Virus record (IMG/VR): IMGVR_UViG_3300049846_002130
Coordinates: 119,529 to 183,528 of that record
Length of the DNA stretch: 64,000 bases
Source: a virus
Strand: one strand, 5' to 3'
In this document: in pieces, positions 3,616 through 64,000 of the stretch
Position numbering within the stretch: position 1 is the stretch's first letter
Layout: each line of letters begins with the position of its first letter
Notes under the pieces: model-generated
What the model saw: only the letters and a program-made list of their open reading frames with translations
What the model was told of the DNA's origin: nothing
The model's database searches: none
Position numbers and translations under genes: made by a program

Positions 3616-4086
3616 CTATTCAGCGCTCTCATCCTCCCATAAAGATGGAATCTGCTGTAAAGCTAGATCCCTAATTGTACGAATATATTCCTGTATAGCA
3701 AGAATATCTTTAACCACATAAATCTTTTCTAAGAAGTCTCGTCCAGATACAGTAGGTATTTGGGAAATCCTCATTGCCTTTTTAGTAATGAAGTCATCTT
3801 CATCTAAACTCAAGAAGTAATTAAATTCGTTGAGTGTATGATGGGCTTCATATGGACTAACTTCATGTAGCTTGTTATAGAGTTTAGCTACAAGGGTTGC
3901 CATCGGTCCGCAAGGTAAAAGTTTAGTAGTAAGAGTAAAACTACCAATAGCTATTCTTCTAAACAAATCAGCATAGGGTAATAGAATTGCAAATAAAGCA
4001 TCGTCAACATTCTGACTAGTAGCATTATCTAAATCTTTGTTCTCTAGGTTTGGATTATAGGCAATAGCCTCTGGTTTCAGTTTCAT
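3616..4086 (-). CDS. hypothetical protein
   Basis: ORF track; GGAGG RBS upstream. Confidence 0.6.
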   Translation of the reverse strand: MKLKPEAIAYNPNLENKDLDNATSQNVDDALFAILLPYADLFRRIAIGSFTLTTKLLPCGPMATLVAKLYNKLHEVSPYEAHHTLNEFNYFLSLDEDDFITKKAMRISQIPTVSGRDFLEKIYVVKDILAIQEYIRTIRDLALQQIPSLWEDESAE

Positions 4087-4129
4087 TATCAGCCTCCAAT
4101 AAGAATGAGTCTAACAAATTAGGTTAGCT

Positions 4130-4238
4130 TAGAAAAGACAAACTTTATAGTGCCTGCCACAGGATACTGTCTAACCCAGTATTGATAGAGTTGAACTATC
4201 CACTTATACGTACAAGGTATTAAATGTAATCTTTTCTA
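4130..4238 (-). ncRNA. Y RNA (YrlA-like) candidate
   Basis: terminal stem TAGAAAAGA/TCTTTTCTA, inner stem TATAAGTG/CACTATA, then in order a T-arm (GATAG TTCAACT CTATC), a loop-closed acceptor-like stem and a GG-containing D-like hairpin; Ro60 gene in the window. Confidence 0.6.
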
Positions 4239-4263
4239 CATTTAAACTCAAACTTATTATAGG

Positions 4264-4337
4264 TGGGTAAGGCATCGAGTTCAACGATGCTTTCTACTAG
4301 CTACAAGCTAATCTGGATTGTCTTCTTACACATACCC
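4264..4337 (-). tRNA. atypical tRNA-like RNA (nominal anticodon TGT)
   Basis: acceptor GGGTATG/CTTACCC, anticodon arm ATTAG CTTGTAG CTAGT, T-arm GCATCG TTGAACT CGATGC, no clear D-stem. Confidence 0.5.
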
Positions 4338-4344
4338 AAGTAAT

Positions 4345-4424
4345 TGGAGAGACTAGATTTGAACTAGTGAACCTTTTGGGAACGGTTTTACAGACCGCAT
4401 GCTTTAGCCTCTTGCATACTCTCC
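4345..4424 (-). tRNA. tRNA-Tyr(GTA)
   Basis: cloverleaf; loop CTGTAAA, long variable arm, T-loop TTCAAAT. Confidence 0.85.
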
Positions 4425-4430
4425 AAAAAA

Positions 4431-4566
4431 ACTAGTGTAGATAGATGCTCGGCTCAGCGAATAAACACCTTAAGTGATCAGACAAAAAGTTAATCATTCT
4501 TTTCAGCTTTGCTACAGGATGATCTTCCCAGCTGTAATTTCTTCTACCAACAGCTTTTTACACTAG
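4431..4566. ncRNA. structured RNA candidate of unknown class
   Basis: closing stem CTAGTGTA/TACACTAG with internal hairpins, between two tRNAs. Confidence 0.4.
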
Positions 4567-4957: not shown

Positions 4958-5581
4958 CTAGATTAATCTAGAGCCTACCTTATTTTCAACTGCAGCAGAA
5001 CGATCAGCATCTGTAAAGAAGTTGTCGCCACTAACCTTATCTTCAGCCCAGCCATCGATAATATTTAGCAGCGAATTCAATGCTGCTTCAAAGTTATGAG
5101 CTGTGTTGCTCATCTGCAATGTTTTGCCTGGTTTGATACCTAGCTTAGTAGAATATTCGATAGCTTTCTTATCTGTACCCATAAAAAGCCAATCCCACCG
5201 CAGCGCAGTTTCCATTGTTCGAATACGCTCGCAAATGTTTTTGGCTGTACCAGAATCATAGTGACCATCTTGTCCATCAGTGAATACGATGGAAAGTACT
5301 TTATCTGTAGGCTGAAATCCTGTTGAAGTATTTAAACTATCTAAAAATTTAGATAGTGATCCACAAATATCAGTATCACTACCGTTTGCTGAATAGCTTC
5401 TACGAAGGTCAGCAACAGAAACATATTCGTTTCCAATATAGCCGGAGAAAGTTCTGGCATATAACTGGACATCCTTCTTATCTAGTAAAAGCTGTAGCCT
5501 ATCTAGAAAAGAGCGTAGTGTATGTTTATGGCTTGCCATCGAGCCTGAATCATCTAATAATAATGCTAATTTCTTTTGCAT
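4958..5581 (-). CDS. von Willebrand factor A domain protein
   Basis: MIDAS LLDDSGSM; FTDG; FMG. Confidence 0.85.
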   Translation of the reverse strand: MQKKLALLLDDSGSMASHKHTLRSFLDRLQLLLDKKDVQLYARTFSGYIGNEYVSVADLRRSYSANGSDTDICGSLSKFLDSLNTSTGFQPTDKVLSIVFTDGQDGHYDSGTAKNICERIRTMETALRWDWLFMGTDKKAIEYSTKLGIKPGKTLQMSNTAHNFEAALNSLLNIIDGWAEDKVSGDNFFTDADRSAAVENKVGSRLI

Positions 5582-5740
5582 GTAAGTCTCCTATGCAATG
5601 CCTTCGTTAGAAGGCTTATATTTTAGTACAAAGCCTAGCCAAGGCGACCATTAGGTCGCCTCCCAGCCCCAGGGTTAGGGACTATATAAACTTATTCATA
5701 ATTTATCAGGCTGACTATTTTTTTAATATAATTTTTAAAA

Positions 5741-6736
5741 TTACCAGCCCCAATCGCCCATTAAATTACCAACACTGTAATCGCTCACCCTCCCCTCAAA
5801 GAAATTTTTCAAACTATCTCCACTCATAATCCAGTCTAACCAGGGTAGTGGATTTGTTTCTATTTCATAGTTTGCTTTAAGGCCAAGCATTTGAAGCCTA
5901 CGATCAGCAATATATCTTATATATACTTTCATTTCTTCTGGTGTTAGGCCTTCAATTGGTCCCATAGCAAAAGCTTTATCTATAATAATATCTTCAACTT
6001 CTACAGCTTGACGGTACATACTGTAGATATATTTTTTAAATTCATTACTAATAATTTGGGGGTGCTCTTCGCAGAACTTTTTAAATAGCCAGCTCATGCC
6101 TTGTAGATGTAGTGTTTCGTCCCTAATAGACCATTCAACTACAGTGCACATGCCCTTCATCTTACCAAAGCGTTGGTAGTTCATTAACATGGCAAAGGCA
6201 CTAAAGAGGCTCATGCCTTCATTGCATACTGTATGAGCTAGCTGATAAGCCATAGTCTTTATTTCTGCTTCTCTTATAGACGCTTCATTAGGAAAGGCTC
6301 CTACAGAATGATAATCAGACATAAGATCTACTTTGTGTTTCATATCTTTATCAGATAAAAAAGCACCGTACTCAGATTCATCCATACCTAATGTATCGTT
6401 TAACAACGCATATGCTCGCTGATGAATTGCTTCGCGAGAAGCGAAGCTCATGAGCATTTGTCGTATCTCATGACTTCTAAAGAACGGAATGAATCTGTCA
6501 CAGTAGTTAGAGGCGACCTGCACATCAGTCTGAGTAAACAGCCGCAGAATTTCCGTTATATGGTTCTTCTCTGCAGGGGTTAGGATTCCAGTTTTCCATT
6601 GTTTAATATCTTCTTGAAGTTCTGCTTCCCATTCACCCCACGCAGCGCGATCTGACTGAATGGCAAAGTCAATTGCTTCTGGATATTTAAATGGCTTATA
6701 TGTTTGGCTATAATGTTCTAAGCTCATAGTTAACAC
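5741..6736 (-). CDS. nrdB: ribonucleotide reductase class Ia beta subunit
   Basis: EAIHQRAY, EGMSLFSAF, WSIRDETLH di-iron ligands; NFFE tail. Confidence 0.95.
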   Translation of the reverse strand: MLTMSLEHYSQTYKPFKYPEAIDFAIQSDRAAWGEWEAELQEDIKQWKTGILTPAEKNHITEILRLFTQTDVQVASNYCDRFIPFFRSHEIRQMLMSFASREAIHQRAYALLNDTLGMDESEYGAFLSDKDMKHKVDLMSDYHSVGAFPNEASIREAEIKTMAYQLAHTVCNEGMSLFSAFAMLMNYQRFGKMKGMCTVVEWSIRDETLHLQGMSWLFKKFCEEHPQIISNEFKKYIYSMYRQAVEVEDIIIDKAFAMGPIEGLTPEEMKVYIRYIADRRLQMLGLKANYEIETNPLPWLDWIMSGDSLKNFFEGRVSDYSVGNLMGDWGW

Positions 6737-6969: not shown

Positions 6970-8717
6970 TCGTCTTCATCTTTAGCCATATAATCTTTAA
7001 GAGCTACTCGCTGTATTTTATTAGCTACTTTATCAGCCTGAACAGTAGAACTAGTTCTGTAGTAGTACAAGCCTTTAACCCCAGATTTCCAGGCTTTAAG
7101 ATGGACCTTATTAACATAAGCCCTATCTACATTTGCTGGAAAGAATAGATTAACTGACTGACCCTGACATATATAATGTTGTCTGTCAGCAGCATGTTGA
7201 ACTACCCATTCTTGGTTTAGCTCAAAAGCTGTTTTATATATGTGTTTTTCATGCTCATCTAATTCTTGTAAATGTTGTACTGACCCATTACTAAGAATAA
7301 TGGAATTCCATATTTCATCTAATTTGCTACTACTATAACCTTTAGAGATAAGTAGAGCTTCTAGATGCTTGTTCTTAACTAGCCAACTACCCACACGGGT
7401 TCTATGTGTGTAGGCATTAGACTTATTAGGTTCAATACTGGGGCTGGTATTGGCAATGATAGATGTATTGGCGTTAGGCGCTATAGCTAATAGATGTGCA
7501 TTACGTCTGCCTGTACCTATTCCACCTGGATACTCTCCACGTTCTAAAGCTAATTGCTTAGTAGATTTAATAGCTTCCTGTTGAATATGAGAACTCATAT
7601 TATGATTAACTATAGAAGCTATTGCAGACTCCCATGGAATACCATTCTTTTGTAAATAAGAATGAAATCCCATCAGACCTAAGCCTAACGAACGTTCATT
7701 TATAGCTGCTTTAATAGCAGAGCTTAGCTCTACAGGGGCATGGCTAATAAAGATATCTATTACATTATCTAGTAATCTAATAGCATCTTGAACAATTAAT
7801 GTATCTTTCCAATCATCATAGTGTTCCGCAACTAATGAGCTTAAACAACAGACAGCTGTATAATTGTTGTCTGTTGGAAGCTCAATCTCAATGCACAGAT
7901 TTGAACCTCTGATTTTTAGGCCTTGGTCTTTAAGTGTTTGTGGCAATGCTTTATTAGCTGTATCAATAAAGTGTAAATAAGGCTCTCCAGTTCTAGCTCT
8001 GGTTTCTAATATCTTATGCCAAAGCTGACGAGCATTAATTTGTTCTTTAACTTCATTGTTGTGTGGATCAATTAAATTAAACAAGGAATCGTTTTGAACA
8101 CAATGCATAAACTCATCTGTAATATTAATAGCATTGTGTAGATTAAAACACTTTCTGTTTTCGTCACCACCAGTTGGAACTCTTATATTTAAGAACTCAA
8201 CAATATCTGGGTGTGATATATCTAGATATGCAGCATAAGAGCCGCGCCGGCTGCCTTTCTGATGGTAGGCAGTCATATCGGCATCAACTGTTTTTAAGAA
8301 TGGAATGGGCCCTGGCGACTTCTTGCTAACAGCACGAATGTCAGACCAATGGCCTCCGACACCGCCACCCTTAACAGAAAGCCAACGTAGCTCAGAGCTA
8401 TGGCTAATTAAAGAATGGAGATTATCGTCCACATAGGTTAAGTAACAACTAATTGGTAAGCCCTGCCAAGGCTCACCAGGAGCGGGGGCATTACTAAGAA
8501 CGGGAGTAGAGAACATAAGCCAGTTCTTGCTTACATAATCATAAATACGTTGTGCAAATTGTAGATCGCCAGCACAATAGGCAACTGCTGCCCTGGCATA
8601 CGCTTCTTGTGGAGAAGACTCTGTTGGTAGTAAATAATGTTCTTTTAGGAGAGACATACCAAAATCTGTGATAAGACCATCTCTCGATAGATCAATCTCT
8701 ATCCCGTAAACTTTCAT
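6948..8717 (-). CDS. nrdA: ribonucleotide reductase class Ia alpha subunit (no ATP cone)
   Basis: STPVLSN, PISCY, SNLCIE, IAPNAN, GLYYYR, C-terminal CMAC. Confidence 0.95.
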   Translation of the reverse strand: MKVYGIEIDLSRDGLITDFGMSLLKEHYLLPTESSPQEAYARAAVAYCAGDLQFAQRIYDYVSKNWLMFSTPVLSNAPAPGEPWQGLPISCYLTYVDDNLHSLISHSSELRWLSVKGGGVGGHWSDIRAVSKKSPGPIPFLKTVDADMTAYHQKGSRRGSYAAYLDISHPDIVEFLNIRVPTGGDENRKCFNLHNAINITDEFMHCVQNDSLFNLIDPHNNEVKEQINARQLWHKILETRARTGEPYLHFIDTANKALPQTLKDQGLKIRGSNLCIEIELPTDNNYTAVCCLSSLVAEHYDDWKDTLIVQDAIRLLDNVIDIFISHAPVELSSAIKAAINERSLGLGLMGFHSYLQKNGIPWESAIASIVNHNMSSHIQQEAIKSTKQLALERGEYPGGIGTGRRNAHLLAIAPNANTSIIANTSPSIEPNKSNAYTHRTRVGSWLVKNKHLEALLISKGYSSSKLDEIWNSIILSNGSVQHLQELDEHEKHIYKTAFELNQEWVVQHAADRQHYICQGQSVNLFFPANVDRAYVNKVHLKAWKSGVKGLYYYRTSSTVQADKVANKIQRVALKDYMAKDEDECMACHA

Positions 8718-17523: not shown

Positions 17524-19211
17524 TATACTTCTCCATTCTTGTTTTGGAACTCAGCCACTACTACCATAAGTAGCGCTGTACAAATGGCGCTTATAGCAAT
17601 CCAGGCTCTAGAACCAATACTGTCTAGAAACCAGACAGGATTGAACTGAAGTAAGGCATCAGCTGCCAAATAAGTTGTCATACCTGCAAGTAGACCTAAT
17701 ACAGCGGTTCTAGTTCTACGAAATGGAGTCAATGTAAAGACAGCTGGAAGAGCAATAAGCGGACTTAACCAAAGTGGAAAACCACTAGCACCAGGACCGA
17801 ACATTAGGTCTGGTAAGTCAAATATATGGAACGTGCCTGGAACAGCACCTGTCCACTTAAGTGGTAGAAGATTAAGTGGTGCAAGAGCACCTGCCCAAAG
17901 GCCAGTCCACAAACTAGTTTGAACAGAAAACTTATTAGAAAACGAGTATGTCTTTGAGACCAATCCTACCAGTAGAACACTAAGTAAAGCAATAAGTGTT
18001 GTTTGCTTAATTGGAGGAGAACTTACTGGAAGGTCTGCAATAGCGGACTTACCACCTCGATGCTTAAGTACAGCGTCCTTAAGGTTGATAATACCAGCAC
18101 CTACCTCAACTGACTTTGGACCATGAGCTGTACTTGTAAGTAATGGAGTGACCTCTTTTGGAGCAATACCTTCACTTAGTAAAACTGCTACAGCACCTGC
18201 AACATGTGGGGTAGCCATAGAGGTACCCTGCCACTCTAGGAACTGTTCAGTTCTATTACCAGGATTTGTTAGCTGCCAGACACCTCCACCTGGAAAATTC
18301 TTATTTCCACCAGGCGCAGCCAAGACTAGGTCCGCACCATAGCTCGAGTAATACGAACGCTTATGGTCAGGGCCAGTCGCACCGACGCTAATAACGTCGG
18401 GGTATAGGGCTGGGTAGCCCATACAGCCTTCGCAGCCATCATTACCAGCGGCAGCAACAACTACAACATTATGGTCTACAGCATACTTTACTGCATCACG
18501 TATAACCTTGCTGGGTGTCGGGCCACCAAGACTCATGCTGATAACACCAGCACCCTGATCTGTTGCCCAACGAATACCACCAGCAATCCAGTCATTATAT
18601 CCAAATCCAGCATCAGAAAGTACCTTTACTGGCAATACTTTGACATGACGAGCAACGCCAACACCACTAATACCATTATCTACAACCTCACCAATAGTGG
18701 AGGCACAATGAGTACCATGACCATGCATATCGGTTAGCTTTTCGCCAGTAAAAGACTTGCCCTTTAGAATACGCTCTGGATCCATATCACTAGTCTTAGT
18801 GAATCCAGTATCTAGTACAGCAACAATGATACCTTCTCCACCTTTGGTATTGGTCCAAGCCCAAGGAGCATCAATCTCACCCATATGCCATTGCTTATTA
18901 AACTCTGGATCATTTGGCTTTAAGTCTGGCTCATCGGTAGCTACCAACATTCCAGTAATTACATACTGAATTCTTGGCTCAACAGATGTAACATTGGCCT
19001 GGCTTTCAAAGAAAGCTAAGCCTTCTGAAAGATTGCTAACTTCAACAATAGCAATAGACTCATCTACAAGAGACTCGTCTGCCCAATCTGCAGAAATAAT
19101 GTTTGAGCCAACAAGATTGTGTAGTTCAGTTGTTGAAGTATTGTCTACAAAGTCGACAACAAGAGTACTTGCATTAGCTACTGTTAACAAACTAAGTAAT
19201 ACTGGTATCAT
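17523..19211 (-). CDS. S8 subtilisin-like serine protease with signal peptide and C-terminal TM helices
   Basis: triad motifs VAVLDTG, HGHGTHCA, GTSMATPHVA; AAAGN; hydrophobic C-terminus. Confidence 0.9.
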   Translation of the reverse strand: MIPVLLSLLTVANASTLVVDFVDNTSTTELHNLVGSNIISADWADESLVDESIAIVEVSNLSEGLAFFESQANVTSVEPRIQYVITGMLVATDEPDLKPNDPEFNKQWHMGEIDAPWAWTNTKGGEGIIVAVLDTGFTKTSDMDPERILKGKSFTGEKLTDMHGHGTHCASTIGEVVDNGISGVGVARHVKVLPVKVLSDAGFGYNDWIAGGIRWATDQGAGVISMSLGGPTPSKVIRDAVKYAVDHNVVVVAAAGNDGCEGCMGYPALYPDVISVGATGPDHKRSYYSSYGADLVLAAPGGNKNFPGGGVWQLTNPGNRTEQFLEWQGTSMATPHVAGAVAVLLSEGIAPKEVTPLLTSTAHGPKSVEVGAGIINLKDAVLKHRGGKSAIADLPVSSPPIKQTTLIALLSVLLVGLVSKTYSFSNKFSVQTSLWTGLWAGALAPLNLLPLKWTGAVPGTFHIFDLPDLMFGPGASGFPLWLSPLIALPAVFTLTPFRRTRTAVLGLLAGMTTYLAADALLQFNPVWFLDSIGSRAWIAISAICTALLMVVVAEFQNKNGEV

Positions 19212-39795: not shown

Positions 39796-41019
39796 TCAAT
39801 TAATTAATTCAGAATTGAACCTGTGCGCCGGCGACCACCAGATCGAGGAAACTATTCGTGGAACCAGACTCTGAAACTTTTCTATTATTAACGTCATAGA
39901 ATGTGTTTCTAATAGCTTAATAAGAAGCATGTTATCAGTTGTACGTAGAATTTTTAAGACTAGTTGTCTTATAGCTTCTTTATCTCTTAGGCTATATTCT
40001 TGCTGCTGGTAACTAACAATAGTTCCTTTAAGTTCAAGATTGATTAAATACTCTTTACCAGACTTCCATCTAAGACCAAGCTGGTCTTTATCTGGCAGGC
40101 TATTAAGCTCTATGATTAAGTTGTCTTCTGTAGAAGGCTTAAACTTATCTTCCTTGGTTACAAGCGTGCTAATTATATTAGCTACAGCTGTAGGACCGCC
40201 ACATTTATCTCTAAGATCTACCCAAGTTTGATTGGTCCATCTAGATATTAAAGCTTCAAGCTTATCTGTATCAGTAGTATAAAAACTAGTAGCACCAGTG
40301 GCTTCTGAATGATTTCTTCTAAGTTTAATTTCATCTTTATAAACAACTAAGTCAAATTTACTATAAAACTTATCAATAGTTTTAAAATCATGTATTAAAT
40401 TTGGGTGAAGAATATTAATAAGTTCTGCTAGAATTTTTTCTACAATCTCTACAGTTCCTACAGTATCTCTTATCTTGGTATAAGTTGGTTCGTTCCATGT
40501 ATTAACCCAAGTACTTAACTGGTTACATAAATCTTTTATACAAATAGCATTTATGTTAATACTTGGAATAGATAATCTACTATAAGTACTTGGGTTACCC
40601 TGAACAAATCCTTGACTAAAAGAGTCTATTCTAAAGTCTACTAAATAGGATTCTCCAAGTTCAGGAATTGCTAGTCTTAAGTATTTGTGATTATATTTTT
40701 CAACCACAGATATTTTTAGGTTATCGGATTTAACTGTAGGTTTATTAGTTATATTAGTATTTTCTGATGAATAAACATTTTTTAATGAATAGATATACGA
40801 TTGGTTTATAGCAGATGCTTTAGTAACTATGTTGTCAGGAGAAGGCTTCTCATCAACAGTAGTAACTTTAGGTTCATCTTCTTTACCTAAAGAACTTAAA
40901 GCTCCTACCAAACCTAAACTTAGAAGTAGCGAACCTAAACCTAAGGCGGGTTTTTGTGTTGTTGGCTTCGTAAGAGTCTTAGTTGAAGACCGTATTTTTT
41001 GTTTAACTGGTGAGGTCAT
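39796..41019 (-). CDS. hypothetical protein, Lys-rich N-terminus plus TM anchor
   Basis: ORF track. Confidence 0.6.
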   Translation of the reverse strand: MTSPVKQKIRSSTKTLTKPTTQKPALGLGSLLLSLGLVGALSSLGKEDEPKVTTVDEKPSPDNIVTKASAINQSYIYSLKNVYSSENTNITNKPTVKSDNLKISVVEKYNHKYLRLAIPELGESYLVDFRIDSFSQGFVQGNPSTYSRLSIPSININAICIKDLCNQLSTWVNTWNEPTYTKIRDTVGTVEIVEKILAELINILHPNLIHDFKTIDKFYSKFDLVVYKDEIKLRRNHSEATGATSFYTTDTDKLEALISRWTNQTWVDLRDKCGGPTAVANIISTLVTKEDKFKPSTEDNLIIELNSLPDKDQLGLRWKSGKEYLINLELKGTIVSYQQQEYSLRDKEAIRQLVLKILRTTDNMLLIKLLETHSMTLIIEKFQSLVPRIVSSIWWSPAHRFNSELIN

Positions 41020-41495
41020 TAGTTACTCTTTATTGTTTTCCACATATAAGATTTAGCAATTTGTATAGCTAACTTTCTTATAGTTGCAATAGAAATAGGT
41101 TTAATTCTTTGAGAGCGTCGTAAAACGCGTATATCTTTGCCTACTAAAAGGATACCCCAATAATTAGGTAAACCTTTTGTAGATAAATCCTTAACAAGCT
41201 CTTCGTCAGAAGAGCCTCTTAAGATATCTTTTTGACAAGCAATATAACAATGTGAAGCAGCTTTTTCATACTTAAGGTATTTTCGCTTTTGTAAATCTTG
41301 TAATAAATCTGCTCGACTTATTTTTGCTTCTATTGCCAATACTTTAAATGGTCTATATTTTGGGCGAGTGCTGATGCCTATAGCATCAGCTATACCCCGC
41401 CCAAAAGCTATCTCATTAATAGCTAAATCTATACCTGGTCTCGTAAGTAACCAGTCTACTAATTTAATTGTTAATTCTCTATGAGTCATTAACAA
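41019..41495 (-). CDS. PD-(D/E)xK nuclease-like (MmcB-like) protein
   Basis: NE...ADAIG...IEAKISRADL..D. Confidence 0.65.
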   Translation of the reverse strand: MLMTHRELTIKLVDWLLTRPGIDLAINEIAFGRGIADAIGISTRPKYRPFKVLAIEAKISRADLLQDLQKRKYLKYEKAASHCYIACQKDILRGSSDEELVKDLSTKGLPNYWGILLVGKDIRVLRRSQRIKPISIATIRKLAIQIAKSYMWKTIKSN

Positions 41496-41496
41496 A

Positions 41497-41685
41497 TTAT
41501 ACCACTGGTTCTACAAAAACCTTTCCAACTTCTTCATATTGTTCTTTGGTTAACTGAAGCTTTACAGCTCTAGCGGAAACATATGCTTCTGATCGAGTGC
41601 TTCTACCTTCGTACTTCTTACGAGTATAAGCAACTGCTGTACGAGCTGCTGCTTTAGCTAAAGTTCTTTTTTGCTTTCTGTTCAT
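41497..41685 (-). CDS. small basic hypothetical protein
   Basis: MNRKQKR start; operon packing. Confidence 0.55.
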   Translation of the reverse strand: MNRKQKRTLAKAAARTAVAYTRKKYEGRSTRSEAYVSARAVKLQLTKEQYEEVGKVFVEPVV

Positions 41686-55704: not shown

Positions 55705-55778
55705 TGGAGCCCGAAACTAGAATCCAACTAGTGTCTATTACTTACAAGGTAATTGCTTTAGCACTAAGCTATACGGGC
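55705..55778 (-). tRNA. tRNA-Thr(TGT) with encoded CCA and C19/G56 swap
   Basis: GCCCGTA/TTCGGGC, loop CTTGTAA, D-loop AGTGCTA, T-loop TTGGATT. Confidence 0.85.
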
Positions 55779-56209: not shown

Positions 56210-56698
56210 TCAAGAGCTAGCAGTAGTCTTGGCAGCCTTAATGGCTGCAAAAAACTCAGTACGGAAGCTGTCAGGTACTGACTTCACTCGCTCCCAGTCT
56301 TCATGACTAAGACCAACATCGTGACAACAAGTGATCCGATTAAGAGCCAAACACCAGGGAATAAAATTATTGGTAGCTGCAGCATAAGCCTTAGCAATAT
56401 CAATCTCCAAAAGCTTATTCTTAGCAGCTCCTTCAAGAACCCTGAGTCGACGAATCTCGCCACGAAGAGCTTCCTTTCTAATAGCCTCTCCATCCATAAG
56501 GGTCTTGATGGCCTCAACAGCATCTCGCTCAGCAGCAGCCTTCCTCTCTGCAGCAGCAGTCTTAAAGGCATCACTTAGCTGAGGAAATGCCTCAGTCTCC
56601 GTATTAGAAGTAACCGTAGTAAGGGCCAGTAAGCCCAAAGTATTGTACGTCATTGGCATATCAGACTCCTTATTGTGCTTTAAGCACAGCGTTCGCAC
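56210..56698 (-). CDS. hypothetical coiled-coil protein
   Basis: ORF track; likely start MPMTY after GGAG. Confidence 0.6.
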   Translation of the reverse strand: MRTLCLKHNKESDMPMTYNTLGLLALTTVTSNTETEAFPQLSDAFKTAAAERKAAAERDAVEAIKTLMDGEAIRKEALRGEIRRLRVLEGAAKNKLLEIDIAKAYAAATNNFIPWCLALNRITCCHDVGLSHEDWERVKSVPDSFRTEFFAAIKAAKTTASS

Positions 56699-56715
56699 TG
56701 CTAAAGTAATTTTAG

Positions 56716-56802
56716 TGGTGAGAGCTAGGGTATTCGAACCCCGAAGCTTTGCTTGCTACAGACATAAGAGTCTGGCTAGACACCTATCTAGCTTAAGCTC
56801 TC
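56716..56802 (-). tRNA. atypical tRNA-like RNA (6-bp D-stem, long variable arm, nominal CTT anticodon, ACCA end)
   Basis: GAGAGCT/AGCTCTC A CCA; GCTAGA/TCTAGC; CAGAC TCTTAT GTCTG; T-loop TTCGAAT. Confidence 0.7.
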
Positions 56803-56809
56803 ATAAATA

Positions 56810-57985
56810 TATGTTTTTGAGTAGGGAATATAACCACCCCGTCTATCGGATTTGCCGTCCTCTTTACAAAGGATAGGCTCCCAGACCCGTTCCGGACTCT
56901 ATGTTGTACCTGACTTTACTAACGTCAATTAATCTGGCCTACAACAATAAAGACCGATTAACCAATGTGGCGGTAGTAAAGCAACTATATTTGGTCTGAG
57001 TTTCACAGACACTTAATACTTGCTAAAGCAAGTACTGGCTCTGACGCTTGGAGGCCAATCCATTTAATACTCATTGGAGCTTACCCTTGAGAGCGGCCCT
57101 AGCAAATATAGTCTAGATTAATTAGCTACTATTAAGCTATTGGATCCTTTAATAACTAATCAACCATATGAGAGGTTTTTATTATCTTCTTTTATTCTAG
57201 ATAACTTAGAGCCTGGGCCAGGCATAAATACCCCGCTTACTACAAAGGTAGTAAGCTTTAATAATTGCAGGAGACCTCTCTTAACCTTGCTAGTGTGCCA
57301 TTTGATATGTAGTTGGCTCTACTTAATATGATTACTATTAAGGCTAGTAACCTTGCCTTTACAGATTCGTTTTATCTGCCTATCTACTTGTCGTCAATAA
57401 GAGTAAAACTAACACGGATGATTCACCGGATAGGTCGATGTCCATCGGGATTAGTTAATTTATCTTATATCCCCTGTGGCTTTAGAAGGCCACATCCCAA
57501 AGGGTCCCAGCAGAGAGTATGAGTCAGGCCGGCTGGATAGGCATTATCCGCAATAAGCTTTAGATATCTCAATATCTAAGGTTGCCGCCTTAGTATCTTG
57601 ATAACTACAGCTTATTAACCCCTTGAAGTACGATTAACTAGCGTACTCTAGGTATAGCTTGAAGGACTATACAGCCTGATGAGCAAATGGAGGTCCAGGA
57701 GTACTAAGTACCAGTAGCTTCTGCTACTACACTTTAATATGTTATTGCCTTCCCGGACCGCAATACATCGTTTTACTTCTTAGATAACAGTAACAATAAA
57801 TAATTTAGAAGCTTATCGATGACTTTATAGCCACTTATCTAGCTACTAGTGTTTTGATAGGAAGATAGACACTACTATCATGCACATTCAATCGTTTCGG
57901 TAGCTAATCCTTATCGATTACTTCATAGACAGGCGCAAGCGTCCTCTACTAGATAGGTATAGATGCATTCCAGCGGGTGTTACCT
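56810..57985. ncRNA. large structured non-coding RNA candidate
   Basis: about 1.15 kb without a convincing ORF, many hairpins, within a tRNA-rich region. Confidence 0.55.
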
Positions 57986-58034
57986 CAAGCGATCAAATTG
58001 AGGCAGACTAAGTCCTATCATCTCAGGCGTCCTG

Positions 58035-58490
58035 TCAAGGACGCTCAATACCAGTAGCATCTCTAAGGTCGGCCCCCTGGAGGTTGGCCCCCTGGAAGTT
58101 GGCCCTCTGGAGGCTGGCCCCTCGGAGGTTGGCCCCCTGGAGGTCAGCCTCCTGGAGGTTGGCCTCCTGGAGGCTGGCCCCTCGGAGGTTGGCCCCCTGG
58201 AGGTTGGCCCCCTGGAAGTTGGCCCTCTGGAGGTTGGCCCTCTGGAGGTTGGCCCCCTGGAGGTTGGCCCCTCGGAGGTCAGCCCCCCGGAGGTCAGCCA
58301 CCAGGAGGTCAGCCCCCTGGAGGTTGGCCCCCCGGAGGTCAGCCCCCCGGAGGTCAGCCCCCTGGAGGTCAGCCCGCTGGGGTGCAGTTCCTTCCTCGAC
58401 AGGATGGGCTTCGAAGCCTTGGCTTCGAAGCCAAGCTTGGTGAGGCCCGTACCAAGGGAAGCGGGCCATGAGGTTGGTATAATCAATCAT
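58035..58490 (-). CDS. pentapeptide repeat protein
   Basis: A(D/N)L(Q/R)G repeats encoded by 15-bp tandem repeats. Confidence 0.9.
   Translation of the reverse strand: MIDYTNLMARFPWYGPHQAWLRSQGFEAHPVEEGTAPQRADLQGADLRGADLRGANLQGADLLVADLRGADLRGANLQGANLQRANLQRANFQGANLQGANLRGASLQEANLQEADLQGANLRGASLQRANFQGANLQGADLRDATGIERP
58070..58375. repeat. 15-bp tandem repeat (GGAGGTTGGCCCCCT-like), coding
   Basis: directly visible; encodes pentapeptide repeats. Confidence 0.85.
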
Positions 58491-58518
58491 AGAATCTCCT
58501 AAAGATATTAATTTCTAG

Positions 58519-58591
58519 TGGATCCGGTGGAAATCGAATCCACCTCAAACGGCTTGCAAGGCTGTTTCGCCCCCTTGGTACATGCGGACCC
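58519..58591 (-). tRNA. tRNA-Cys(GCA), atypical
   Basis: GGGTCCG/CGGATCC, loop CTTGCAA, T-arm GTGGA TTCGATT TCCAC, A73. Confidence 0.75.
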
Positions 58592-58597
58592 ATTAAG

Positions 58598-58669
58598 TAC
58601 TTCCGAGGGTAGTCGAAACCCTGTTGCATGGATGAAAACCATGAGTCCTGACCGCTAGACGACGGAAGC
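58598..58669 (-). tRNA. tRNA-Glu(TTC)
   Basis: loop TTTTCAT, D-arm GTC..GAC, T-arm AGGGT TTCGACT ACCCT. Confidence 0.85.
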
Positions 58670-59114: not shown

Positions 59115-59738
59115 TCACCTCATAGTATCTAGTGGAATATGAAACTTTTGTTTACTATTTGAATTCTTCCAGCAATGGCTAGTTCCACCATCTTTAGGGG
59201 TTGTCGCATCAATACCCCAAGTAAAGGCATAAAGCCTATCAAGGTTCTTACCAACCTGAAGGTTTCGGTAATGAAGTGGAGAAGCTTTATAGTCTTCTGG
59301 TGGATAATGAACGCTAAAGATTGCACCTTTCTCAATTGCCCATGCAATACCAGCCATAGTATTAGCTTGCATCACGTCACTAAATCTACGATGGTAATAA
59401 TTTAAGGTTCCGCCTGGATTTTTATTGAAATCAACAGTCCCGTCATCTACATATCCAGGAATAGAAGACTTTAGAGACCAAAACCAGTTATCCATGTTAT
59501 CAATATGAAACTGACAGGGAGCATGAATCTGCAATGAGGCTGCCTTGCCAGCTAAGAACAAACTAACAGCAAGATGGTCACTAAAAGCAGCACCACCACT
59601 GATTAAGTTTCTTTCAGAAACAGGGGTGTCTGCCAGTAGTACCTGGTCTAGATGATGAAAGCAGTTTACATAGATCTGCTTTGTCCATTTAGTAGCATCT
59701 ACTCCTCTACCTGCACTACCAATAATACCAATAAACAT
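59115..59738 (-). CDS. SLOG-superfamily (YspA/DprA-like nucleotide-binding) protein
   Basis: IGIIGSAGR, ISGGA..SD.LA, RN..V, AF...GGT. Confidence 0.6.
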   Translation of the reverse strand: MFIGIIGSAGRGVDATKWTKQIYVNCFHHLDQVLLADTPVSERNLISGGAAFSDHLAVSLFLAGKAASLQIHAPCQFHIDNMDNWFWSLKSSIPGYVDDGTVDFNKNPGGTLNYYHRRFSDVMQANTMAGIAWAIEKGAIFSVHYPPEDYKASPLHYRNLQVGKNLDRLYAFTWGIDATTPKDGGTSHCWKNSNSKQKFHIPLDTMR

Positions 59739-62558: not shown

Positions 62559-62881
62559 TGGGCCGTATAGGATTCGAACCTATGACCTCGGGCTTAACGT
62601 CACTGCACTTAGTTTCCTAAGCTACCTTAAAGGCTTGCAGTGCTGGACTATATCATCACCTTCACCTTAAGTGGTCAGGTGCTGTACGTGTAGTCTCTGA
62701 GGACTCTCTGCTAATGCAGGTTGCCTGCTGATTGTCCAATCCATTAAATTTTTACGTTTAGGCACGTATTAATGGCTCTAAGGAGTTTCCAGCATATAGT
62801 ACAGTTCATTTACTATATTTCTATAGTAACGCTCTTATTACACGTTTAAGGCCCTCGCTCTACCAACTGAGCTAACAGCCC
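62559..62881 (-). tRNA. tRNA-Lys(TTT) interrupted by a group I intron
   Basis: exon 1 62881-62848 and exon 2 62597-62559 join into a cloverleaf with loop CTT|TTAA. Confidence 0.85.
62598..62847 (-). mobile_element. group I self-splicing intron (250 nt, no ORF)
   Basis: P TGCTGGAAACTCC, Q AATCAGCAG, R TCAGAGACTAC, S GATATAGTCC, terminal G. Confidence 0.9.
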
Positions 62882-63165: not shown

Positions 63166-63357
63166 TCAAGGATCGCCGTGGTATGGAAAAGTGGTGAGTT
63201 GCATGACATGAAAGACATCATACCAAGCGGCAAAAGCCATAACACCAGAAAACATAAACAGAAGCAGATGAATTAATCTATTTTTATTTGAAACTAAAAA
63301 CGAGTAAAGATAACAACAAGTTGCTAATATCCAAAGCAATGTAAGAGCGATATTCAT
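63166..63357 (-). CDS. small two-TM membrane protein
   Basis: hydrophobic helices. Confidence 0.55.
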   Translation of the reverse strand: MNIALTLLWILATCCYLYSFLVSNKNRLIHLLLFMFSGVMAFAAWYDVFHVMQLTTFPYHGDP

Positions 63358-63359
63358 AT

Positions 63360-63539
63360 TTACTCCTGTTCAGTAATAGCTAGCTGACGTTGAGTGCGAC
63401 GATTCTGTCGCTTAGCAAGCTTATGCTTATAGATAGCTGTTCTACCACGCCATGTAGCTGGAGTACCACCAGCCTTAAAATGTTGCTTACGAAGTTCACC
63501 TTTAATGCCTCGTAAGATTTTGTTTTTAAGTTTGGCCAT
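63360..63539 (-). CDS. 59-aa highly basic protein (MAKLKNK...GGTPATWRGR...)
   Basis: read manually; GGAG RBS; below the ORF-track cutoff. Confidence 0.6.
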   Translation of the reverse strand: MAKLKNKILRGIKGELRKQHFKAGGTPATWRGRTAIYKHKLAKRQNRRTQRQLAITEQE

Positions 63540-63784
63540 AGTAACTCCTATTACTTAGATGGTGTCCAATCAGCTATTTAAATAGCTTGTTCATATGAAC
63601 TGCAATCTACACAGATTACCATTTACCTATGATTAGCAATACGAATGATAAGCAATCAGTTGAAAAGGTTCAGTGAAGTTAAGGTAAAGATTGTGGGTTT
63701 TGTAACCAACCCTCCACATTTTCCCTTGAAAACCATTAACGCGGGCTCGAAAGAGCCACGGTAAATCTGAGTATGGATTAAACA

Positions 63785-64000
63785 TTAGTCAATAGCTCCT
63801 TCAAGGTCAGCTCCCTGGAGGTTAGCTCCCTGGAGGTCAGCTCTCTGGAGATCAGTTCTCTGGAGGTTGGCCCCCTGGAGGTCAGCCCCCTGGAGGTAGG
63901 CGTCCCGAAGGTAGGCATCTTGGAGGTTGACATCTTGGAGGTTGGCATTCTGAAGGTAGGCCCACCGGAGGTAGGCCCTCTGGAGGTTAGCCCCCCAGAG
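63785..64000 (-). CDS. pentapeptide repeat protein (5' end outside window)
   Basis: ANLQ/AYLR/ADLQ repeats ending EGAID*. Confidence 0.85.
   Translation of the reverse strand, partial: LWGANLQRAYLRWAYLQNANLQDVNLQDAYLRDAYLQGADLQGANLQRTDLQRADLQGANLQGADLEGAID

Follow-up and report, generated by a model that had tools for sequence, protein, structure and literature searches.

We identified a block of about 1.2 kb without open reading frames (ORFs) in the genome of an uncultured phage of freshwater origin (IMG/VR record IMGVR_UViG_3300049846_002130). The block lies within the 64-kb stretch of DNA that we refer to as the window, which comprises the last 64 kb (bases 119529-183528) of the 183,528-bp record. 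It occupies positions 56803-58034 (coordinates are those of the window unless the genome or another contig is named) and is real, truly non-coding, unique in its genome and native in composition. Its limits are the stop codon of a pentapeptide-repeat protein gene (58035) and an element shaped like a transfer RNA (tRNA), with an encoded ACCA, whose edge lies at 56802; its probable strand, judged from its context and from a helix containing G-U pairs, is the minus strand. The reading that we favour, tentatively, is that the block is the untranslated part of a leftward transcription unit of tRNA and accessory genes, and that this part ends at the abutting tRNA-shaped element. The block's lack of coding capacity and its layout can be read directly, whereas its transcription, its processing and any function are what we infer. 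An initial annotation had proposed a "giant ornate RNA" at 56810-57985, which falls inside the limits adopted here, and that description is possible for the block.

The lack of coding capacity is evident in every reading frame. Stop codons number 25-40 per frame over 56803-58034, with all three kinds present in all six frames, and the per-frame minimum is 4 for TGA, 7 for TAG and 11 for TAA, so that no reassignment of one or two of the stop codons opens a frame. The longest stop-to-stop frame spans 69 amino acids (aa), no Shine-Dalgarno motif precedes any ORF of at least 15 aa on either strand of the block, and the period-3 score is 0.82, compared with 6-19 for eight genes of the window. Searches of Pfam and PHROGs with the six frames of the block, stops being read as X, gave no match at E<=1, and tblastx with the block returned nothing either from the remainder of the genome or from 0.94 Mb of DNA of related phages. 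Nowhere else in the 183,528 bp of the genome, 93% of which is covered by open frames of 80 aa, is there so long a gap without such a frame (1103 nt); the other ORF-free gaps that this genome tolerates measure 0.6-1.0 kb. These results bear out the initial annotation in describing a tightly packed genome in which this stretch holds only short ORFs that do not resemble those of proteins. The tetranucleotide make-up of the block is typical of the genome (19% of windows lie further from the mean), which rules out a recent foreign insertion. In G+C content the block is at the genome mean, and it is enriched in TA, as expected of DNA free of codon constraint.

Metagenomes of freshwater and of freshwater sediment, belonging to two studies, contain the same sequence. 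Contigs from independent runs of both studies span the block, with zero differences or variants in it across three runs, and therefore the block is not an assembly artefact. All three sequencing runs that hold it are DNA runs, and no RNA run is among the listed holders of its sequence. Variants and joints fell only in the pentapeptide-repeat gene (58076-58472), where they represent cross-mapped metagenome contigs of other organisms and not phage strain variation. A 127-bp terminal repeat of the record is an exact assembly overlap, and the assembly is therefore circular. The genome codes for a portal protein, a major head protein, a split DNA polymerase, a primase-helicase, a ribonucleotide reductase, an RNA ligase and a Lon-like protease.

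The tRNA-shaped element (56716-56802, minus strand) stands directly against the 3' end of the block, at a distance of 0-7 nt. It has a 7-bp acceptor stem that includes a G3-C70 pair, followed by the encoded ACCA, and its cloverleaf has a minimum free energy (MFE) of -34.5 kcal/mol (z -3.35). In other respects its structure is aberrant, the anticodon and T loops having 6 nt each in the MFE fold. Against the Rfam tRNA covariance model it scores 14.9 bits, under the 29-bit gathering score, and ARAGORN reports it only when thresholds are lowered to 85%, labelling it "tRNA-???" with an anticodon loop of 8 nt and the four-base anticodon CUUA. Judged by these features, the element could be a suppressor tRNA, of frameshift type or reading UAA, or a tRNA mimic that does not decode.

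The neighbouring genes and tRNAs of the block all lie on the minus strand. In leftward order, the region contains tRNA-Gln, a 119-aa gene, an HNH gene on the opposite strand, a 243-aa gene, a conserved 207-aa gene (59115-59738, minus strand), tRNA-Glu, the pentapeptide-repeat gene, the block, the tRNA-shaped element, an orphan 149-aa gene and tRNA-Thr. The pentapeptide-repeat gene, immediately upstream of the block (58035-58490, minus strand), encodes 151 aa and matches Pfam PF00805 (E 7e-42). Both tRNA-Glu(UUC), upstream (58597-58669, minus strand; 54.1 bits for Rfam tRNA), and tRNA-Thr(UGU), downstream (55705-55778, minus strand; 63.1 bits), are called by ARAGORN, belong to the same leftward unit as the block and lie within 1.1 kb of it; with the tRNA-shaped element, they confirm the earlier description of the stretch as flanked by tRNA genes. 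A weak tRNA-Ala(UGC)-like element (58518-58591, minus strand), 5 nt from tRNA-Glu, is called by ARAGORN at relaxed thresholds only, and neither at default thresholds nor at the Rfam gathering score. Downstream of the tRNA-shaped element, the 149-aa gene (56210-56659, minus strand) has GGAG ahead of its ATG; its product has no Pfam or PHROG match, and its sole match among 5.8 billion proteins is itself. A simple scan, which is weak evidence in that it matches consensus only, found terminator-like sites on the minus strand only at 62094-62065 and 55533-55515, and the tRNA and accessory region therefore looks like one leftward transcription unit.

On this basis, we hypothesize that leftward transcription enters from tRNA-Glu and the pentapeptide-repeat gene and reads through the block, a read-through that we propose because the scan finds no minus-strand terminator-like site between 62065 and 55533. 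RNase P would cut at the 5' end of the tRNA-shaped element, and this cut would release about 1.2 kb of non-coding RNA, which would be either a free molecule or the tail of the pentapeptide messenger RNA. The structure of the released RNA would include a few well-defined local domains (57759-57692, 57616-57552 and 57293-57099). Our guess is that its role might be linked to the contest between phage and host over tRNAs and translation that dominates this region, in which an RNA ligase, TilS, odd tRNAs and tRNAs with inserted homing endonucleases are found. In its most far-reaching form, the proposal would make the block the first representative of a new class of non-coding phage RNAs of more than 1 kb, made from tRNA operons, processed by RNase P at a tRNA-shaped 3' module that is non-canonical and possibly has a four-base anticodon, and acting in that contest, with ORF-free blocks of 0.9-1.2 kb in the tRNA clusters of relatives as fast-evolving counterparts; we regard this as rather unlikely.

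The initial annotation had drawn attention to the many helices of the block. The six hairpins that it named (56994-57010, 57017-57034, 57235-57256, 57475-57494, 57560-57579 and 57713-57728) are all present. Perfect stems of at least 6 bp with loops of 3-10 nt number 10 in the block, compared with 2.64 +/- 1.63 in 300 dinucleotide shuffles; genome windows of the same size, however, average 5.0 +/- 2.5, and 3.8% of them reach 10. The longest uninterrupted helix (57165-57116) has 16 bp, a length above that in all 200 shuffles and reached by 2.9% of genome windows. It includes four G-U pairs, and would therefore form in minus-strand RNA only. Over the full length of the block, the MFE z-score is -4.05 for the minus strand and -3.19 for the plus strand, while four coding controls of equal length gave -3.1, -4.4, -5.3 and -3.5; in 200-nt windows, the folding z-scores of the block are the same as those of the flanking genes. 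Local hairpins are thus in the upper tail and global stability is ordinary, and thermodynamics does not single the block out. The abundance of helices holds against shuffled sequence but is not exceptional for this genome. The minus strand, which the initial annotation had guessed, agrees with the minus-strand neighbours and with the helix specific to that strand, and it is on these grounds the probable one.

Pair probabilities from the partition function of 58034-56713 point to three local domains in minus-strand RNA. The first (57692-57759) is a predicted 8-bp, G+C-rich closing helix (GGUCCGGG/CCUGGACC) around the AGUAGC/GCUACU hairpin, with pair probabilities of 0.99-1.00. The second (57552-57616; inverted repeat I1) is a long interrupted hairpin of about 22 bp, in which two helices of the initial annotation appear in alternative pairing (0.96-1.00). 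The third (57099-57293) is a predicted multi-branch domain of 195 nt that combines a 9-bp hairpin at 57235-57256 with the 16-bp helix at 57116-57165 (0.96-0.98); a single-sequence covariance model of this domain (R1) was run over 0.5 Mb of related genomes, where nothing matched it. A long-range closing helix of 10+8 bp (57934-57910 with 57401-57378) was also predicted and was set aside, as we estimate that about one such helix is expected by chance when G-U pairs are allowed.

Known RNA families were examined by cmscan against the 4227 families of Rfam 15, for the whole window at the gathering score and for 56500-58200 at E<=10 with permissive filters. At neither level was there a match in the block, whether to GOLLD, ROOL, OLE, HEARO, group I or group II introns, RNase P, tmRNA or ribozymes. 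The absence of group I, group II, RNase P and tmRNA cores, as reported initially, is thereby upheld, while the suggestion that the block belongs to the GOLLD or ROOL class finds no covariance-model match at E<=10 with the GOLLD, ROOL or OLE models. The same search detects a group I intron 5 kb away (62624-62851, minus strand; 67.9 bits, E 4e-15), beside tRNA-Met and tRNA-Gln. An intron was rejected for the block itself, where Intron_gpI, Intron_gpII and group-II-D1D4 give no match at E<=10. A tmRNA was likewise rejected: ARAGORN is negative, Rfam gives no match, neither strand has a GCN-GCN-stop sequence, and the acceptor stem of the adjoining element has G3-C70 and not G3-U70. The block is not a decayed tRNA array either, since no tRNA model matches at E<=10 and ARAGORN at 85% thresholds calls nothing inside it. 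The best local alignment between the block and the neighbouring tRNA-shaped element covers 17 nt (P ~0.02), and other tRNAs give one as good.

GOLLD and ROOL RNAs are frequently found near tRNAs and in prophages, with ROOL averaging 581 nt and GOLLD being larger (PMC5737381), and their structures have been solved by cryogenic electron microscopy (cryo-EM) (bioRxiv 10.1101/2024.12.08.627333). The block is like them in size class and in its setting, being in a phage and near tRNA genes. It differs in that those families are defined by covariation across many genomes and by cryo-EM, whereas the block is known from the sequence of one genome alone; moreover, it has no covariance-model match at E<=10, no homologues that define a multistem architecture and no G+C enrichment.

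The closest parallel in layout is rnaX of phage T5 (Demerecviridae), annotated in NC_005859 at 40848-41566 as a "stable RNA with unknown functions", with an annotated promoter ahead of it and tRNA-Arg at 40773-40847, and matched in 525 phage records. Like the block, rnaX is a long ORF-free stretch in a tRNA region, on the same strand as the tRNAs, and its 3' end stands against a tRNA (40848/40847) as the end of the block at 56803 stands against the tRNA-shaped element at 56802. The two differ in length (719 nt, or 0.72 kb, compared with about 1.2 kb), in phage lineage and habitat, which are unrelated, and in promoters, one being annotated in T5 and none being evident for the block; in addition, some rnaX copies hold an internal tRNA look-alike, whereas none was found inside the block. 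An nhmmer profile of six diverse rnaX loci, and single rnaX sequences, gave no match in the block, and the best match in the window (E 1.3) lies elsewhere. As far as sequence comparison can tell, the block is outside the rnaX family, and what it shares with rnaX is the layout.

Two further systems offer comparisons for the proposed processing. The tRNA cluster of phage T4 includes small stable RNAs (species 1 and 2, rnaC/rnaD) that are co-transcribed with tRNAs and freed by tRNA-processing enzymes; these are of about 120-140 nt with a roughly tRNA-related fold, whereas the block is ten times longer. In eukaryotes, the long non-coding RNA MALAT1 acquires its 3' end by an RNase P cut at a downstream tRNA-like structure, mascRNA. 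The parallel with MALAT1-mascRNA is a mechanistic analogy only, as it concerns another domain of life, involves no homology and is drawn to a processing step that we propose for the block.

The block was found in one genome only among all collections searched. A blastn search with the block gave no match in 50,697 phage records (GenBank) or in 72,556 plasmids (PLSDB). Relatives of the major capsid protein at 91, 79 and 77% identity occur only on contigs of 1.4-10.9 kb, and complete genomes, of 150-206 kb, are found in the wider capsid family, where identity is 45-57%. The major-capsid alignment led to 70 IMG/VR loci, of which the records behind 43 were searched with the block, and five more searched records were reached through the Lon-like protease and the 207-aa neighbour; blastn against these 10 + 38 IMG/VR records gave no match better than chance. 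Searches with nhmmer and relaxed blastn likewise found nothing in two complete related genomes or in the contigs with the closest homologues of the 207-aa protein. Exact 19-20-mers from the best-defined helices, searched in viral, metagenome and genome collections (IMG/VR, JGI metagenome, GTDB), gave three chance matches of 19-21 nt, with no flanking similarity.

The neighbouring genes provided few routes to orthologous loci. Homologues of the 207-aa protein show 67-70% identity, and the only contig of useful length, L184, which carries the closest relative of this gene (67% aa identity), ends 270 nt beyond the gene. Past the gene, L184 has tRNA-His and a gene on the opposite strand, and because this gene order differs from that around the block, we conclude that the region turns over quickly. 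The 149-aa protein, being an orphan without relatives, gave no lead to such loci.

Comparable gaps do exist in related phages. In two complete genomes of relatives, whose capsid proteins are 47-57% identical, and in L184, gaps of 0.9-1.2 kb without ORFs or period-3 signal occur in or beside tRNA clusters. The ORF-free gaps of these relatives, 0.6-1.2 kb in size, lie at 7556-8716 and 6548-7117 of L173 (genome G006), 969-1854 of L177 (genome G007) and 3363-4424 of L184. The G+C content of the gaps of two relatives is below the genome mean, unlike that of the block, and in the other ORF-free gaps of our genome and of the relatives only tRNAs matched Rfam. The 192-kb relative G007 has 24 tRNAs, one of which (L177:7188-7260, anticodon CUA, called "tRNA-Pyl" by ARAGORN) is of the amber-suppressor type.

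Several of these observations weigh against the reading that we favour. There is no convincing promoter at the 5' edge of the block, the only minus-strand promoter-like site being internal, and promoter-like sites in the block are no commoner than in shuffles. Because the tRNA-shaped element is non-canonical, cleavage by RNase P at that point is an assumption. The full-length z-score of -4.05 falls within the range that the coding controls span (-3.1 to -5.3), the values for hairpins, though in the upper tail, are not exceptional for a hairpin-rich genome, and G+C content shows no enrichment. With no homologue in any collection searched, there is no conservation and no covariation to draw on, and the gaps of relatives share no detectable sequence with the block or with each other.

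A nearly equally likely explanation is that the block is a functionless spacer or relic in an accessory region of fast turnover, perhaps transcribed passively but without a role, and left, for example, by lost genes, by a lost intron or homing-endonuclease cassette, or by illegitimate recombination. Such an origin fits a block that is an orphan in every collection searched and adjoins a gene that is also an orphan, that has a folding energy ordinary for its genome, and in which TA and stop codons are enriched as in unconstrained DNA. It also fits a region that holds homing endonucleases, a group I intron and aberrant tRNAs, a gene order that differs in the nearest relative, and a genome that tolerates other gaps of 0.6-1.0 kb. 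Set against it is the absence of any trace of a former gene (in periodicity, Pfam, PHROG or tblastx) and of a decayed tRNA or intron core. Phage genomes tend to shed useless DNA, yet the block is the largest gap. Its G+C content has not drifted under the genome mean, unlike that of the gaps of two relatives, its local hairpins are in the top 3-4%, and its exact abutment to the tRNA-shaped element recalls rnaX.

The remaining explanations are much less probable. A role at the level of DNA, as a replication origin, a packaging or recombination site, or a promoter or operator array, is improbable, even though the block holds several palindromes, of which the hairpin at 57016-57035 has an operator-like near-copy elsewhere as a 30-bp palindrome, and an octamer (GTTATCTA) that occurs twice in it and is mildly enriched in intergenic DNA. 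Iterons and tandem repeats are absent from the block (those of 150 nt that the genome does have are at the record ends), as is an AT-rich unwinding element (at most 67% A+T per 200 nt, compared with genome peaks of 75-79% elsewhere). Cumulative GC skew does not turn at the block (its extremes are at 19.3 and 91.5 kb), and promoter-like sites are at shuffle frequency. A motif search of intergenic DNA yielded no phage promoter consensus. An origin or promoter array and a decayed gene were also the alternatives named in the initial annotation; signs of the former and traces of the latter are absent. Hidden coding, by small proteins, under another genetic code or in an intron-broken gene, is more improbable still and close to refuted: the adjoining tRNA-shaped element might in theory decode UAA or a codon of four bases, and one relative has a tRNA of the amber-suppressor type, but every frame has at least 4 TGA, 7 TAG and 11 TAA codons, the period-3 score and the lack of Shine-Dalgarno-led ORFs agree, and neither a protein-family signal with stops read as X nor an intron core is present. 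Least credible of all is that the block belongs to a large RNA family already described (GOLLD, ROOL, OLE, T5 rnaX, a tmRNA-like RNA, RNase P or an ORF-less group I or II intron) but has diverged too far for the models to recognise it. The setting in a phage beside tRNAs fits GOLLD, ROOL and rnaX, but Rfam gave no match at E<=10 over 1.7 kb, the rnaX profile and single sequences gave none in the block, and ARAGORN finds no tmRNA, in keeping with the lack of a tag frame ending in Ala-Ala-stop.

Some other features of the genome were observed in passing. The hairpin TACTTGC-N4-GCAAGTA of the block (57016-57035, without assigned strand) has a near-copy at genome positions 18054-18083 (blastn, 22 nt, 95% identity), outside the window. 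There, the sequence is a perfect 30-bp palindrome in another non-coding gap, and its core recurs at 57013-57038 of the window; 72 nt beside it (genome 17949-18020) are 83% identical to positions 473-544 of a related contig, L185. The palindrome at genome 18054-18083 may be an operator or a conserved regulatory site. Two further ORF-free gaps outside the window, at genome positions 3939-4527 and 5023-6022, have a 182-nt repeat in common (84% identity) and no Rfam match, and tRNA-Leu(UAA) lies 2 kb away. The ends of the record (window 63198-64000 and genome 1-940) contain 150-nt tandem repeats and several arrays of repeats with a 15-nt, or pentapeptide, period. The genome has pentapeptide-repeat genes at four sites (1-940, 13.9 kb, 177.6 kb and 183.3 kb).

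In this genome, a block of this kind cannot be told from ordinary coding DNA by the number of its hairpins and its folding energy alone. Long gene-free stretches beside tRNA genes are a recurrent feature of large phages, with T5 rnaX, GOLLD and ROOL as examples, and to these the block, from one uncultured genome, adds a candidate and not a discovery. By analogy among these cases, we suggest that it is the arrangement, a long non-coding stretch followed by a tRNA-shaped element, that recurs, and not any one sequence. More generally, this layout offers a simple model for such stretches in phage genomes, in which the 3' end of the RNA would be formed by RNase P.

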